Shown piece after piece: positions 1 through 6,418 of a stretch of 8,897 nucleotides of DNA. Made by a program: the position numbers and the translations under genes. Under the pieces are notes generated by a model. That model worked only from the letters and a program-made list of their open reading frames with translations, did no database searches and was not told the DNA's origin. Within the stretch, counting starts at the first letter, position 1. The number at the start of each line of letters is the position of its first letter. The DNA is from a virus (Duplodnaviria > Heunggongvirae > Uroviricota > Caudoviricetes), in IMG/VR virus record IMGVR_UViG_2671180852_000010; one strand, given 5' to 3'.

Positions 1-46
1 TAAAAAAAGAACAAATGGTAGTGTCCGCTATTGCCAGTACACCTCA
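1..46 (+). mobile_element. Right terminus of an IS3-family insertion sequence whose body lies upstream of the window; bases 1-3 correspond to the orfB stop codon
   Basis: Bases 1-46 are identical to 5138-5183, which directly follow the transposase OrfB stop (TAA 5138-5140) of the internal IS copy. The segment ends in ...CCTCA, matching the 5'-TG...CA-3' ends typical of IS3-family elements. The exact end is uncertain by a few bp. Confidence 0.45.
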
Positions 47-245
47 TCCATCACCGAAAAAAATTGGCTTTTACACCATTGGCGATAAAAGCATTTACCT
101 GTATGACCTACGCCGCATGGATGAAATCATGGAGGCTCTTGATAATCGTTCGTCGATGGATTGGTGTGTTGCTGTTCATGATATGAATGCAGGGTTTGAT
201 GAAAAGATTTTGTTCCCCTCATCAGTTGAAAGCACTGCGGGTTAA
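47..245 (+). pseudogene. 3' fragment of an unidentified gene, apparently interrupted by the IS insertion (about 66 codons ending ...FPSSVESTAG)
   Basis: The frame is open from inside the IS terminus through to TAA at 243-245. The ATG at 15 reported in the ORF track lies inside the presumed IS terminal sequence, so the 76-aa ORF is probably chimeric. No family recognised. Confidence 0.3.
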
Positions 246-255
246 GGAGTAACAC

Positions 256-423
256 ATGACCACTATTACCAAAGAACGTATTGAATTGTTCATTAAAAAC
301 CCGCTTGAAAACGGGCTTACCCGTGGTGAACAAATGGAACTGGCACGGATTGCGCTGGCATCGCTGGAAGCAGAGCCGGTTGTGTTCTGGTTTGAAAAAT
401 ATCAAGAAGGGGCTACGGCATGA
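256..423 (+). CDS. Hypothetical 55-aa protein ([12 protein letters not shown]...), short paralog of the N-terminal half of the next ORF
   Basis: ATG at 256 preceded by AAGGAG (244-249). The stop TGA 421-423 overlaps the next start ATG 420-422 (ATGA). Shares the MTT(I/F)T(K/R)E start, the IAL(A/V)SL(E/A)AEP motif and FEKYQEG versus HEYKPVG with ORF 420-764. It falls below the ORF-track length cutoff. Confidence 0.5.
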
Positions 424-764
424 CGACTTTTACCAGAGAGCAGTTAATAGCTCACGCAGAGGAGACTATTGAAGCACAGAGACTGTGCATACCGGGCACA
501 ATCGACCATGACATCATCCGCACATATAAGATGGATATTGCTGTTCTGGAAATCGCACTGGTATCGCTGGCAGCAGAGCCAGCCGGTAAATTGCATGAAT
601 ACAAACCAGTGGGATATCAGCGTCTGGTCGATGAGTTAACCATGCTGGTAAAGCAGTTAACCTGGCAACTGAGGAAAGCGAAGCCAGACTGCAAATTACC
701 GGATAAGGCGATGAGTTATCTGGAGCGGAACGGACTGATAAGCGTGGAGGATATTTTACGATGA
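420..764 (+). CDS. Hypothetical 114-aa protein ([15 protein letters not shown]...), family not recognised
   Basis: Translationally coupled to both neighbours by ATGA overlaps at 420-423 and 761-764. Paralogous to the preceding 55-aa ORF. An identical copy lies at 5557-5901. Confidence 0.6.
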
Positions 765-844
765 CCTGGCCTGAAGCATTAACAACGGTAGGAATTGCGA
801 TGGCGGTGGCGCTGGTGGTGTATTCGATTTGCCGCTGGGGATAA
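761..844 (+). CDS. 27-aa hydrophobic mini-protein ([27 protein letters not shown]), predicted single transmembrane helix
   Basis: ATG 761 overlaps the upstream stop (ATGA); TAA at 842-844. The hydrophobic core is flanked by W/R residues. It is short enough that the call is tentative. Confidence 0.3.
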
Positions 845-1055
845 AAACGGTTTGCGGGAAAAGGAGAGTTAAGTAGAATTGCAGCGGGTGCTTGAGGCTA
901 TCTGTCTCAGGCATGAACACCAAAAGGCAGATAGAGAAAAGCCCCAGTTAACATTACGCGTCCGGCAAGACGCTTAACATTAATCTGAGGCTCAATCTAT
1001 GAACGGCAAATCTAGGTTAGCCTCTTACGTGCCGAAAGGCAAGGAGAAGCAGGCT

Positions 1056-1211
1056 ATGAAGCAGCAAAAGGCGATGTTAATCGCCCTGATCGTCATCTGT
1101 TTAACCGTCATAGTGACGGCACTGGTAACGAGGAAAGACCTCTGCGAGGTACGAATTCGAACCGGCCAGACGGAGGTCGCTGTCTTCACAGCTTACGAAC
1201 CTGAGGAGTAA
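1056..1211 (+). CDS. hokD: Hok/Gef-family type I toxin, 51 aa (MKQQKAMLIALIVICLTVIVTALVTRKDLCEVRIRTGQTEVAVFTAYEPEE)
   Basis: The translation matches the Hok/Gef family signature (single transmembrane helix, TRKDLCEV motif, C-terminal periplasmic tail) and matches my recollection of E. coli K-12 HokD. AAGGAG at 1041-1046 lies 9 nt before the ATG. The downstream order rem, ydfU, Q fits the Qin prophage context. The ORF track extends this frame upstream to ATG 999 (70 aa). Confidence 0.85.
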   Translation: MKQQKAMLIALIVICLTVIVTALVTRKDLCEVRIRTGQTEVAVFTAYEPEE

Positions 1212-1281
1212 GAGACCAGGCGGGGGAGAAATCCCTCGCCACCTCTGATGGGTCAGGCATCCTCAATGCACCCACACTTAA

Positions 1282-2847: not shown

Positions 2848-3228
2848 ATGACCGAGCGCATAGAATTTGTTTTACCTTACCCGCCGACGGTGAACACTTA
2901 CTGGCGTCGTCGTGGCAGCACATATTTTGTATCAAAAGCCGGGGAGCGTTATCGCCGGGCAGTGGCGCTTATTGTTCGCCAGCAGCGGCTGAAATTAAGC
3001 CTGTCCGGAAGGTTGGCAATAAAAATTATTGCAGAACCACCGGATAAGCGCCGCCGTGACCTGGACAATATTCTGAAAGCGCCGCTGGATGCGCTGACGC
3101 ATGCGGGGTTGCTAATGGACGATGAGCAGTTTGATGAAATCAATATCGTTCGTGCTCAGCCAGTATCTGGTGGACGTCTGGGGGTGAAGATTTATCCCAT
3201 AATGCTTGAAGGGCAGGTCAAAAAATGA
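2848..3228 (+). CDS. rusA: RusA-family Holliday junction resolvase (crossover junction endodeoxyribonuclease), 126 aa
   Basis: PDKRRRDLDNILKAPLDALTHAGLLMDDEQ matches the RusA catalytic-core pattern (K-12 RusA has [30 protein letters not shown]). The stop overlaps the Q start (ATGA at 3225-3228). Confidence 0.85.
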   Translation: MTERIEFVLPYPPTVNTYWRRRGSTYFVSKAGERYRRAVALIVRQQRLKLSLSGRLAIKIIAEPPDKRRRDLDNILKAPLDALTHAGLLMDDEQFDEINIVRAQPVSGGRLGVKIYPIMLEGQVKK

Positions 3229-4286
3229 AACTGGAAGATTTACCGAAATACTACTCCCCAAAATCCCCCGGCCTGACTGATGCATCGGCCTCAACGTCGA
3301 AAGATGCGCTGAGTATCACTGATGTGATGGCCGCGCAGGGCATGACACAGAATCGGGCTGAGATGGGGGTTTCTGCGTTCCTTGGGAAAATGGGCATTAG
3401 TATGAATGACAGAGAGCGGGCAACAGAATTGCTGACAGAATATGCACTCAGTCGGTGTGATCGCGTGGCGGCGTTAAGAAAACTCCCGGCAGAAATAAAA
3501 CCGGCAGTGATGCGTATTATGGCTTCGTATGCGTTTGAAGATTATGCCCGTAGCGCGGCGAGCAAAAAACAGTGCCCCTGCTGTCACGGAAAAAAATTTA
3601 TTGAAAGCGAGGTTTTTACAAACAAGATCCAGTATCCGGATGGTAAGCCGCCGGTATGGGCAAAGTGTACGAAAGGTGTGTATCCGTCTTACTGGGAAGA
3701 ATGGAAAAAAGTCAGGGAGGTGGTAAAAGTTGCCTGTCCGGAGTGTGGCGGAAAGGGTGAGGTTTCCACCGCCTGTAAGGATTGCCGTGGGCGTGGTGTC
3801 GCCATTCATCGTGAAGAGTCGGTAAAACGTGGTATGCCTGTTATCAGAGACTGCCAGCGTTGTGGTGGTCGTGGCTATGAAAGACTACCATCAACGGAGG
3901 CATTTAATGCTATATGCGAGGTGACAAACCAGATAACACGCGCGTCATGGGAAAAAACAGTTAAGAAATTTTATGATGCGCTGGTGACCCGGTTTGATAT
4001 TGAAGAAGCATGGGCTGAGCGGCAGTTAAAAAAGGTAACTAGGTATGAAAATCAACTTTCGATCAGTGAAGGCGCTTCCCGATTATCTCTTCCTGAAGGC
4101 ACTTTAGGACAATGGGTTACCGCCGCAAGAAAAGGGCTCAATACACCAGGCTCCCGCACAGTGGCTGAGCTGGAATCTGAAGTTATGCAACTGCGTAAGG
4201 CTTTAAATGAAGCACGACTTGAGCGAGATATATTAAAAAAAGCAACAGCGTATTTTGCACAGGAGTCGCTGAAAAATACGCGTTAA
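3225..4286 (+). CDS. Chimeric ORF: Q-type late antiterminator (about aa 1-274) joined in frame to the C-terminal part of an IS3-family OrfA (from about aa 275)
   Basis: The N-terminal 270 aa or so are about 95% identical to the partial Q' at 8593-8897 and carry four CxxC pairs. From about nt 4047 the translation (ENQLSISEGASRLSLPEGTLGQWV...ERDILKKATAYFAQESLKNTR) is a typical IS3-family OrfA helix-turn-helix and leucine-zipper C-terminus that lacks its own N-terminus. Confidence 0.7.
   Translation: MKLEDLPKYYSPKSPGLTDASASTSKDALSITDVMAAQGMTQNRAEMGVSAFLGKMGISMNDRERATELLTEYALSRCDRVAALRKLPAEIKPAVMRIMASYAFEDYARSAASKKQCPCCHGKKFIESEVFTNKIQYPDGKPPVWAKCTKGVYPSYWEEWKKVREVVKVACPECGGKGEVSTACKDCRGRGVAIHREESVKRGMPVIRDCQRCGGRGYERLPSTEAFNAICEVTNQITRASWEKTVKKFYDALVTRFDIEEAWAERQLKKVTRYENQLSISEGASRLSLPEGTLGQWVTAARKGLNTPGSRTVAELESEVMQLRKALNEARLERDILKKATAYFAQESLKNTR
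4235..4241 (+). other. Candidate programmed -1 ribosomal frameshift heptamer A AAA AAA (followed by G) for OrfAB fusion synthesis
   Basis: Heptamer in the OrfA zero frame (TTA AAA AAA GCA). The -1 frame is open from here into OrfB (KKSNSVFCTGVAEKYALIEQWRQQFPIEAMCQVFGVSRSGYY...). A 9-bp stem-loop begins 6 nt downstream (4248-4256 pairing with 4273-4281). Confidence 0.5.
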
Positions 4287-4321
4287 TCGAACAATGGCGA
4301 CAACAATTTCCCATTGAAGCG

Positions 4322-5140
4322 ATGTGTCAGGTATTTGGTGTATCCAGGAGCGGTTATTACAACTGGGTACAGCATGAACCCTCAGACAGAAAACAAAGTG
4401 ATGAGCGGCTAAAACTGGAGATTAAGGTGGCACATATCCGCACTCGCGAAACATATGGAACCCGGCGGCTCCAGACGGAGCTGGCAGAGAATGGCATCAT
4501 CGTTGGTCGTGACCGACTGGCACGTCTTCGTAAGGAGCTAAGGCTACGCTGTAAGCAGAAACGCAAGTTCAGAGCGACTACGAACTCGAACCACAATCTG
4601 CCAGTTGCGCCAAATCTGCTGAACCAGACGTTCGCTCCTACAGCACCAAATCAGGTCTGGGTGGCGGACCTGACGTATGTTGCCACACAGGAGGGATGGT
4701 TGTACCTCGCTGGCATCAAAGATGTTTATACGTGCGAAATTGTCGGCTACGCCATGGGAGAGCGCATGACAAAAGAGCTGACAGGTAAAGCCCTGTTTAT
4801 GGCGCTCAGGAGCCAGCGCCCACCTGCCGGGCTAATCCACCACTCTGATCGAGGTTCACAGTACTGCGCATACGATTACCGGGTCATACAGGAGCAGTCT
4901 GGTCTGAAAACATCAATGTCGCGTAAAGGTAACTGTTACGACAACGCTCCGATGGAAAGCTTCTGGGGAACGCTGAAAAATGAGAGCCTGAGCCACTATC
5001 GTTTTAATAACCGGGATGAAGCCATCTCAGTAATACGGGAATACATTGAGATTTTCTACAATCGTCAGCGTCGTCACTCTCGTCTGGGGAATATCTCCCC
5101 GGCAGCCTTCAGGGAAAAATATCATCAGATGGCTGCTTAA
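4322..5140 (+). CDS. IS3-family transposase OrfB (DDE / rve integrase core); the coordinates are the standalone ORF, which in vivo is probably made as an OrfAB frameshift product
   Basis: Conserved IS3-family OrfB features: VWVADLTYV, HSDRGSQY, a KGNCYDNAPMESFWGTLK segment containing the catalytic E, and a C-terminal YNRQRRHSRLGNISP. It is in the -1 frame relative to OrfA. Confidence 0.85.
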   Translation: MCQVFGVSRSGYYNWVQHEPSDRKQSDERLKLEIKVAHIRTRETYGTRRLQTELAENGIIVGRDRLARLRKELRLRCKQKRKFRATTNSNHNLPVAPNLLNQTFAPTAPNQVWVADLTYVATQEGWLYLAGIKDVYTCEIVGYAMGERMTKELTGKALFMALRSQRPPAGLIHHSDRGSQYCAYDYRVIQEQSGLKTSMSRKGNCYDNAPMESFWGTLKNESLSHYRFNNRDEAISVIREYIEIFYNRQRRHSRLGNISPAAFREKYHQMAA

Positions 5141-5183
5141 AAAAAGAACAAATGGTAGTGTCCGCTATTGCCAGTACACCTCA

Positions 5184-5382
5184 TCCATCACCGAAAAAAA
5201 TTGGCTTTTACACCATTGGCGATAAAAGCATTTACCTGTATGACCTACGCCGCATGGATGAAATCATGGAGGCTCTTGATAATCGTTCGTCGATGGATTG
5301 GTGTGTTGCTGTTCATGATATGAATGCAGGGTTTGATGAAAAGATTTTGTTCCCCTCATCAGTTGAAAGCACTGCGGGTTAA
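5184..5382 (+). pseudogene. Second copy of the 3' fragment of the IS-interrupted gene (identical to 47-245)
   Basis: Identical sequence directly downstream of the IS right end. Confidence 0.3.
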
Positions 5383-5392
5383 GGAGTAACAC

Positions 5393-5560
5393 ATGACCAC
5401 TATTACCAAAGAACGTATTGAATTGTTCATTAAAAACCCGCTTGAAAACGGGCTTACCCGTGGTGAACAAATGGAACTGGCACGGATTGCGCTGGCATCG
5501 CTGGAAGCAGAGCCGGTTGTGTTCTGGTTTGAAAAATATCAAGAAGGGGCTACGGCATGA
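5393..5560 (+). CDS. Hypothetical 55-aa protein, identical copy of 256-423
   Basis: Identical sequence, with AAGGAG upstream and an ATGA overlap with the next gene. Confidence 0.5.
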
Positions 5561-5901
5561 CGACTTTTACCAGAGAGCAGTTAATAGCTCACGCAGAGGA
5601 GACTATTGAAGCACAGAGACTGTGCATACCGGGCACAATCGACCATGACATCATCCGCACATATAAGATGGATATTGCTGTTCTGGAAATCGCACTGGTA
5701 TCGCTGGCAGCAGAGCCAGCCGGTAAATTGCATGAATACAAACCAGTGGGATATCAGCGTCTGGTCGATGAGTTAACCATGCTGGTAAAGCAGTTAACCT
5801 GGCAACTGAGGAAAGCGAAGCCAGACTGCAAATTACCGGATAAGGCGATGAGTTATCTGGAGCGGAACGGACTGATAAGCGTGGAGGATATTTTACGATG
5901 A
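5557..5901 (+). CDS. Hypothetical 114-aa protein, identical copy of 420-764
   Basis: Identical translation in the ORF track. Confidence 0.6.
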
Positions 5902-5981
5902 CCTGGCCTGAAGCATTAACAACGGTAGGAATTGCGATGGCGGTGGCGCTGGTGGTGTATTCGATTTGCCGCTGGGGATAA
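5898..5981 (+). CDS. 27-aa hydrophobic mini-protein, identical copy of 761-844
   Basis: Identical sequence, with an ATGA overlap with the upstream gene. Confidence 0.3.
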
Positions 5982-6192
5982 AAACGGTTTGCGGGAAAAG
6001 GAGAGTTAAGTAGAATTGCAGCGGGTGCTTGAGGCTATCTGTCTCAGGCATGAACACCAAAAGGCAGATAGAGAAAAGCCCCAGTTAACATTACGCGTCC
6101 GGCAAGACGCTTAACATTAATCTGAGGCTCAATCTATGAACGGCAAATCTAGGTTAGCCTCTTACGTGCCGAAAGGCAAGGAGAAGCAGGCT

Positions 6193-6348
6193 ATGAAGCA
6201 GCAAAAGGCGATGTTAATCGCCCTGATCGTCATCTGTTTAACCGTCATAGTGACGGCACTGGTAACGAGGAAAGACCTCTGCGAGGTACGAATTCGAACC
6301 GGCCAGACGGAGGTCGCTGTCTTCACAGCTTACGAACCTGAGGAGTAA
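6193..6348 (+). CDS. hokD: Hok/Gef-family type I toxin, identical second copy
   Basis: Identical to 1056-1211. Confidence 0.85.
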   Translation: MKQQKAMLIALIVICLTVIVTALVTRKDLCEVRIRTGQTEVAVFTAYEPEE

Positions 6349-6418
6349 GAGACCCGGCGAGGGAGAAATCCCTCGCCACCTCTGATGTGGCAGGCATTCT
6401 CAACGCACCCGCACTTAA

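Follow-up and report, generated by a model that had tools for sequence, protein, structure and literature searches.

A frameshift cassette in a truncated IS600 element joined to a phage antiterminator Q gene

Towards the end of a long reading frame in a Caudoviricetes sequence, seven consecutive A's stand a few bases ahead of a short inverted repeat and a stop codon. Is this arrangement a programmed signal that sends ribosomes into the -1 frame and, if so, what can it mean in an element that has lost one of its ends? The site lies in an 8,897-nucleotide stretch of viral DNA (IMG/VR record IMGVR_UViG_2671180852_000010), which we call the window; positions are counted from its first letter, and all features described here are on the plus strand. 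The analysis leads us to conclude that the cassette is almost certainly the signal for -1 programmed ribosomal frameshifting in the insertion sequence IS600.

Anatomy of the cassette

The 0-frame ORF (3225-4286) is read at the site as ATA TTA AAA AAA GCA. This phasing places a slippery heptamer, A_AAA_AAA, at 4235-4241, with two Lys codons, AAA 4236-4238 and AAA 4239-4241, in the positions that correspond to the ribosomal P and A sites. A preliminary description of this DNA had written the heptamer as A AAA AAA G; the slippery run is indeed at 4235-4241 and in the OrfA frame, but the motif is A_AAA_AAA, and the G that follows the seven A's (G4242) falls outside it. A 6-nt spacer, GCAACA (4242-4247), leads to the 5' arm of a stem, GCGTATTTT (GCGUAUUUU), at 4248-4256, and the 3' arm, AAAATACGC (AAAAUACGC), occupies 4273-4281. 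The two arms are exact reverse complements and fold into a perfect 9-bp hairpin stem, closed by the pair G4248-C4281. Between them is a 16-nt loop, GCACAGGAGUCGCUGA (4257-4272), with AGGAG at 4261-4265, and the stop codon of OrfA, TAA (4284-4286), follows 2 nt 3' of the stem. The layout of spacer, stem, loop and stop given in the preliminary description is therefore present base for base.

The same description held that reading straight on in the -1 frame leads into OrfB, and this is so: the frame is open from 4223 to a stop codon at 5138-5140. Because the 0 and -1 ORFs overlap over just 64 nt (4223-4286), the frameshift must fall in that interval, and inspection by eye revealed no other 0-frame slippery heptamer within it. 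After a slip, OrfB would run uninterrupted through 299 codons and a stop (4241-5140), and in this translation Pfam recognizes HTH_21 and the rve DDE integrase core.

How well does this site fit what is known of bacterial frameshift signals? Sharma et al. (2014) looked for motifs of the form X_XXZ_ZZN in the 0 frame within an ORF overlap, followed 4-10 nt later by a hairpin, 17-140 nt in size, which opens with a G-C pair and then at least three further pairs and takes at least 7.6 kcal/mol to unfold. The heptamer has this form, frame and position. The hairpin lies inside every one of these limits, being 34 nt long and 6 nt past the motif, with a G-C closing pair, 9 bp and a folding energy of -11.1 kcal/mol. 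Rich in A-U pairs, the stem is moderately stable.

RNA folding, suggested earlier as a check on the cassette, bears it out. Folded alone, the 34-nt hairpin has a z-score of -2.86, and only 1 of 200 dinucleotide shuffles folds as well; a wider fold of 76 nt does not reach significance (z = -1.07). What stands out is the hairpin proper, not a general structure of the region. Perfect 9-bp hairpins occur at three sites in the window, against 0.82 expected in shuffled sequence. The combination of a heptamer XXXYYYN with a perfect stem of at least 9 bp located 4-10 nt downstream is rarer still, with 0.01 expected per shuffled window, and the site described here is its only occurrence.

IS600 identity and the published signal

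The element that carries the cassette is a copy of IS600 (IS3 family, IS3 group). A megablast search of complete E. coli genomes with positions 4000-5220 recovered thousands of copies, the best of them 98.3-99.4% identical and annotated in RefSeq as "IS3-like element IS600 family transposase". We took a nucleotide identity of at least about 95% to define the same element, and the identity over 4046-5183 is above this value. The organization is that of the IS3 family: the two ORFs overlap, orfB is in the -1 frame, OrfA carries a helix-turn-helix domain (HTH_Tnp_1 in the 0 frame) and OrfB a DDE core (HTH_21, rve, rve_2 and rve_3 in the -1 frame). In RefSeq, the CDS of full copies is entered as two joined pieces with the note "programmed frameshift". 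When OrfAB was rebuilt from a full copy by a slip at the heptamer, the resulting 86 + 299 codons gave a protein of 385 aa that exactly matches NCBI proteins named IS3-like element IS600 family transposase.

Alignment with two full copies shows where this one is broken. Homology begins only at 4046 and continues to 5183 (...ACACCTCA), so that about 130 bp are missing from the left: the left inverted repeat (IRL), the ribosome binding site, the start codon and roughly the first 22 codons of orfA. The native promoter is gone too. The right inverted repeat (IRR), GTGTCC...ACACCTCA, is intact at 5158-5183, and its reverse complement matches the IRL of the full copies, TGAGGTAGCC...GGACAC. Of the two termini (5'-TG...CA-3') expected of a whole element, then, the IRR is present and the IRL absent. 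Because the IRL and the first ~130 bp are lacking, this is, as had been proposed, a truncated copy and not a complete element, and without an IRL it cannot transpose by itself. The cassette was also said to have stayed intact, and it is identical in the window and in the two aligned full copies, as well as in most of 22 other copies. The only recurrent in-stem change among IS600 copies replaces C4249 by U and leaves a G-U pair in place; such variation is too little for a population-level test.

A signal with these properties has been published. Sharma et al. 2014 (NAR 42:7210, PMC4066793) grouped genes of E. coli and Shigella that carry conserved heptamers, and their cluster A_AAA_AAA_1 (Tables S4, S6 and S8), labelled "Fam IS3/grpIS3/IS600 [true]; transposase A", comprises 517 genes, with SD = N and a structure present. 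A hairpin is listed for 85% of the cluster, 34 nt long, with a 6-nt spacer and a first stem of 9 bp (Table S8), and the motif is placed at codon 86, with products of 385 and 100 aa (Table S6). They call the IS600 frameshift proven and stem-loop-stimulated on the basis of unpublished data, and report no reduced synonymous variability around the motif. A search of the literature for IS600 frameshift experiments returned nothing beyond this paper. The copy in the window agrees with the cluster in motif, spacer, hairpin and stem, and in having no upstream Shine-Dalgarno (SD) sequence. It differs in its products, which would be 353 and 638 aa and would be entered from the phage gene Q, whereas those of the cluster are 100 aa (OrfA) and 385 aa (OrfAB). 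Shifting at the IS600 site and its stimulation by the stem-loop are taken from the literature; the anatomy, the identity, the conservation and one covarying pair come from the present analysis. The earlier assignment to the IS3-family frameshift arrangement is thus borne out by the identity of the element, the RefSeq annotation and the matching published dimensions. It follows that the signal is already known: it is a textbook IS3-family recoding site, its dimensions are tabulated, and the NCBI pipeline annotates it routinely.

Comparison with other frameshift signals was also proposed earlier. IS3 belongs to the same IS3 subgroup as IS600; the 6-nt spacer is common to IS911, IS3 and IS150, and IS3 is equal in stem and loop length as well. 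In IS3 of E. coli K-12 the order is A_AAG, a 6-nt spacer, ACAUACUUC, a 16-nt loop and GAAGUAUGU; like that of IS600, the stem has 9 bp, or 10 if G2064-C2099 is counted. Both stems are built from homologous A-(T/A)-Y-F codons, and in both elements the OrfA stop is at or just past the 3' arm. IS3 differs in that the tetramer A_AAG slips and in that its loop pairs downstream in a proven pseudoknot, whereas the equivalent second stem in IS600 is not above chance. IS911 shares an A-rich heptamer, the 6-nt spacer, a downstream structure and an OrfAB fusion transposase. Its motif, however, is A_AAA_AAG, it has an upstream SD-like stimulator, GGAG, and its structure is a branched three-way-junction stem-loop of 57 nt with a first stem of 7 bp; IS600 has a simple 34-nt hairpin and no upstream SD. 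IS150 and dnaX resemble IS600 in using a simple hairpin 6 nt past the heptamer (48 nt with a 10-bp first stem in IS150), but both have the G-ending motif A_AAA_AAG, and dnaX adds an upstream SD.

Hairpin conservation and the pseudoknot question

If the hairpin matters, it should be visible in distant homologues. A scan of one genome per species yielded 46 usable relatives with OrfB 56-68% identical, from Massilia, Duganella, Aeromonas, Geobacter, Nitrospira, Dehalococcoidia and other hosts. Their frameshift windows are colinear with ours and align to it free of gaps, giving 47 sequences in all. Of these, 37 have the heptamer A_AAA_AAA and 10 have A_AAA_AAG, and the spacer is 6 nt in every one. 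For the basal seven pairs of the stem, at least 94% of cells show standard pairing. Most relatives have 7 bp, the two innermost pairs that bring the stem to 9 bp being peculiar to IS600 and a few others. The OrfA stop falls at the equivalent of 4281-4289 in 42 of the 47 and inside the loop in the remaining 5.

One pair covaries. The pair 4253-4276 is C-G in 41 sequences, U-A in 5 (IS600 included) and U-G in 1, with no broken cell among the 47. Because the change at 4253 is synonymous in OrfA and that at 4276 is non-synonymous, codon-level coupling does not explain their co-occurrence. Conservation and covariation in homologues thus lend the stem modest support at the sequence level, modest because the stretch is dual-coding and highly conserved and there is essentially one covarying pair.

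The AGGAG of the loop raised the possibility of a Shine-Dalgarno element, in either of two roles. As a stimulator of the IS911 or dnaX type it is in the wrong place, 20 nt 3' of the slip site, since SD stimulators of -1 shifting act from upstream. In signals of this type an SD-like GGAG is expected about 10-14 nt ahead of the heptamer; in the 30 nt ahead of it here (4205-4234) both GGAG and AGGA are absent, and the sole AGGAG is that of the loop. As a ribosome binding site for OrfB it has no ATG, GTG or TTG 5-12 nt downstream, and the first ATG of the OrfB frame is at 4322. GGAG is conserved in at least 90% of the relatives. Because it lies downstream of the slip site, is followed by no start codon and belongs to a cluster without an upstream SD, it is not a Shine-Dalgarno element and is best read as coding sequence, possibly also as a strand of a second stem.

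That second stem is the substance of an alternative in which the stimulator is an H-type pseudoknot of the IS3 kind. The hairpin would then be stem 1 only, and stem 2 would join the loop sequence GGAGUCGC, with its GGAG, to a segment about 14 nt past stem 1 (4296-4301). For IS3 a stimulatory pseudoknot has been proven (Sekine et al. 1994, as cited in PMC4066793 and PMC6815119), and stem 1 of IS3 equals that of IS600 in spacer, stem and loop lengths. By our own reading of the IS3 sequence, GCCUGA in the loop finds its complement, UCAGGC, 14-15 nt downstream. The relatives offer a comparable match, their loop GGAGUCGC being complementary to GCGACUCC 15 nt past stem 1; this pairing is longer than the one available in the window and amounts to a full 8 bp in a relative such as L025. 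In the window itself the candidate is weak: the 3' strand GGCGAC (4296-4301) faces GUCGCU in the loop (4265-4270) with a duplex energy of -10.5 kcal/mol, yet only 5 bp and one G-U form, a result that does not stand out from shuffles (p = 0.27) or from synonymous recoding (p = 0.67). Sharma et al. (PMC4066793), moreover, describe the IS600 stimulator as a stem-loop.

Across the 46 relatives the picture is more favourable to stem 2. Pairing of loop columns 35-41 with columns 69-75 holds in 80% of cells, compared with 28-50% when the partner is slid, an excess that is partly circular because the helix was taken from the consensus. A downstream Arg codon, CGA or CGG, that pairs with a loop U is found in 40 of the 47 sequences (U-A in 30, U-G in 10). 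Three relatives (L058, L061 and L073) have a different loop, GGCGCAGC, and by our reading synonymous downstream changes, GCUGCGUC, bring back a helix of 8 bp with the register moved by 3 nt. Against a synonymous-recoding null, p is below 0.05 in 8 of the 47 and below 0.2 in 24. The related sequences are not independent of one another. In-register compensatory changes are nearly absent, amounting to a single cell. We therefore regard a pseudoknot as plausible for the IS600 clade, judged from its sequences, and as unsupported for IS600 itself, in agreement with the stem-loop description in PMC4066793. As an account of the stimulator at this site, the pseudoknot is unlikely.

No Rfam family reaches its threshold at the site. 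The only hit is a sub-threshold match at 4247-4349 to RF01497, the ALIL pseudoknot, known as a frameshift stimulator from other members of the IS3 family; it scores 14.3 bits (E = 0.09-0.11), where the gathering cut-off is 50. The match starts exactly at the stem. It is driven mostly by the homologous coding stretch GCGUAUUUUGC, and the helices that define ALIL are not satisfied here.

The difference between IS600 and its relatives can be put into a tentative evolutionary scheme, which we consider a possibility and not the likelier course of events. In relatives from Massilia, Geobacter, Nitrospira and Dehalococcoidia, the loop GGAGUCGC would be the 5' strand of an IS3-like stem 2 with GCGACUCC. 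IS600 would have lost most of this stem (GCGACUCC to GCGACAAC) and compensated by extending stem 1 from 7 to 9 bp, through a change of the 3' arm from CCCGG to AAAAA. If true, this would be a natural case of a stimulator switching from pseudoknot to hairpin.

Probable ribosomal slippage and the fusion to phage Q

How would the simple hairpin work? A ribosome in the OrfA frame would arrive at the two Lys codons with AAA 4236-4238 in the P site and AAA 4239-4241 in the A site, while the 9-bp hairpin, 6 nt downstream, would sit at the mRNA entry channel and resist unwinding. Both tRNA-Lys molecules would then probably slip back by one base and pair with 4235-4237 and 4238-4240. Translation would restart at AGC (4241-4243) and bypass the OrfA stop, yielding the OrfAB transposase with a predicted junction ...ERDILKK-SNSVFCTGVAEK... 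(...ILKK-SNSVF...). Ribosomes that do not slip would end at the TAA at 4284, 2 nt past the stem.

Could RNA polymerase, rather than the ribosome, be the main agent, slipping on the seven A's and leaving an extra A in the mRNA? Transcriptional slippage usually takes runs of at least 9, but in the IS3-family element IS1447 at least 7 suffice (PMC6211511), and the run here is A7. E. coli genes also strongly avoid the sequence AAAAAAA, whichever of the three frames it falls in, possibly owing to slippage, and without a stimulator A_AAA_AAA gives 0.4%, among the highest basal values (PMC4066793). The relatives tell against this explanation. Nine of the ten with A_AAA_AAG have only six consecutive A's and still keep the ribosomal X_XXZ_ZZN rule and its frame, and the heptamer strictly keeps its phase. 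With a conserved hairpin placed 6 nt downstream, the site has the geometry of ribosomal frameshifting, whereas hairpins that promote slippage lie upstream (PMC6211511). IS600 is also classed as a true case of -1 programmed ribosomal frameshifting (PMC4066793). Polymerase slippage as the main agent is, in our view, very improbable, and ribosomal frameshifting remains the preferred reading.

The published values for A_AAA_AAA bracket the efficiency that ribosomal shifting at IS600 might reach. From 0.4% without stimulator, shifting rises to 0.8% with the stimulators of IS911 and to 25% with the pseudoknot of IS3 (PMC4066793). Within this range of 0.4-25%, the efficiency of IS600 may be low, because its stem is only moderately stable and because A_AAA_AAA gave 0.8% with the moderate IS911 stimulators.

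We turn now to the surroundings of this particular copy. The 0-frame ORF that ends at the cassette (3225-4286) is not orfA itself: it consists of a phage antiterminator Q gene of 273 codons fused in frame to the remnant of orfA, from about codon 23 to its stop. The ORF list, Pfam (Antiterm, DnaJ_CXXCXGXG and HTH_Tnp_1 in the one translation) and alignment of the junction all support this. Phage sequence ends at 4045 and IS600 begins at 4046. An intact Q homologue in E. coli 6817, an antitermination protein Q CDS of 822 nt, ends GGT AAC TAG GTA A..., with its stop codon, TAA, at the equivalent of 4044-4046; the window reads TAT there, the third base coming from IS600. Because the IS600 junction destroyed the stop of Q, a complete Q ORF is fused in frame to orfA. 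The predicted products of this copy are a Q-'OrfA protein of 353 aa in the 0 frame and, through the frameshift, a Q-'OrfAB protein of 638 aa.

The fusion bears on whether the cassette is of any use where it now stands. Judged from its sequence, the signal in this copy is real and probably mechanically competent. It is nonetheless likely that the cassette here is an inert relic, in a truncated element that does not transpose and makes no frameshift product of consequence; this concerns its use and not its nature, and is compatible with the cassette being the IS600 signal. The IRL, the promoter region, the ribosome binding site and the start codon are absent. The remnant is 98-99% identical to full copies, most of which have the identical cassette, implying that it has had no time to decay. 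The Q::IS600 junction, moreover, is absent from the 5,426 complete E. coli genomes searched, where matches start at 4046, and from viral contigs, phage records and the Shigella and E. coli loci that we fetched. On the other side stands the fusion itself. With the remnant of orfA in frame with a complete Q and the stop destroyed, ribosomes translating Q during prophage induction would reach the signal. They are the only ribosomes that could do so in this copy, and if the signal continues to work they would produce the 638-aa Q-'OrfAB. The cassette is intact simply because the remnant, at 98-99% identity, has hardly diverged from active copies; its state reflects recent truncation and is no evidence of retained function.

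For annotation, the value of the finding is that 4046-5183 is a 5'-truncated IS600 and that the ORF at 3225-4286 is a phage Q::'orfA fusion, not a long novel gene. For the family, the comparative addition is a small one: the base of the hairpin and one covarying pair are kept across very distant bacterial phyla.

The junction between Q and the IS600 remnant

The left end of the 5'-truncated IS600 remnant falls within a phage gene (junction at window 4040-4050). The remnant starts at 4046, where the stop codon that ends the phage antiterminator gene Q has its third base; the codon reads TAT, compared with TAA in intact homologues. With this stop codon lost, all 273 codons of the Q ORF run on in frame into the orfA remnant, and the resulting fusion ORF is 353 aa long, or 638 aa with the frameshift.

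Tandem phage segments and their duplicated features

The window opens (1-46) with the OrfB stop codon and right end of a second IS600 copy. This right end abuts the same phage sequence as that of the truncated copy (CTCA/TCCATCACCG). Window positions 1-1250 and 5138-6387 are 100% identical; beyond this repeat, identity between the two segments, both from the phage nin/Q region, is only 84-92%, and two blocks are divergent. The window thus holds two related lambdoid segments in tandem, with an IS600 right end ahead of each.

Strong Rfam matches to the sok antitoxin RNA occur at 886-1061 and 6023-6198 (112 bits; gathering score, 59), and they overlap Hok-like ORFs at 999-1211 and 6136-6348, respectively, which contain ...MKQQKAMLIALIVICLTVIVTALVTRKDLCEVRIRTGQTEVAVFTAYEPEE. 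Each pair of sok match and Hok-like ORF is predicted to be a hok/sok-type toxin-antitoxin locus, duplicated along with the phage segment.

Besides the frameshift stem, perfect 9-bp hairpins are found at two further sites in the window. One has a 10-bp stem (1756-1765 with 1786-1795) enclosing a loop of 20 nt and is directly upstream of a DUF968-like ORF at 1789. The other, a G+C-rich 9-bp stem with a 4-nt loop (6356-6364 with 6369-6377), lies directly 3' of the second Hok-like ORF and looks like a terminator; it has no perfect counterpart in the first copy of the repeat.

Variation and loop pairing among IS600 and its relatives

Three IS600 copies (L008, L011 and L022), carried by Shigella flexneri SFBU1023 and E. 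coli ECMA0423, have a C-to-U change at the second stem position (window 4249 equivalent). The change converts C4249-G4280 to a U-G wobble pair, so that the stem stays paired, and replaces Ala with Val in OrfA. Two more copies (L018 and L019) are left-truncated at approximately the window 4281 equivalent, where the frameshift hairpin ends on its 3' side, and unrelated sequence replaces their left side. These two copies show that IS600 remnants lacking the 5' part are common in these genomes.

In the more distant relatives (L023-L082; for example, L025 1189-1285), there is complementarity between the hairpin loop GGAGUCGC and the segment GCGACUCC, 15 nt 3' of the stem; the window equivalents of the two strands are 4262-4269 and 4297-4304. 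In a subgroup of these relatives (L058, L061 and L073), both strands are altered, to GGCGCAGC and GCUGCGUC. This complementarity, together with the change of both strands, suggests that this clade of IS600 relatives may form an IS3-like pseudoknot, mostly lost in IS600 itself.
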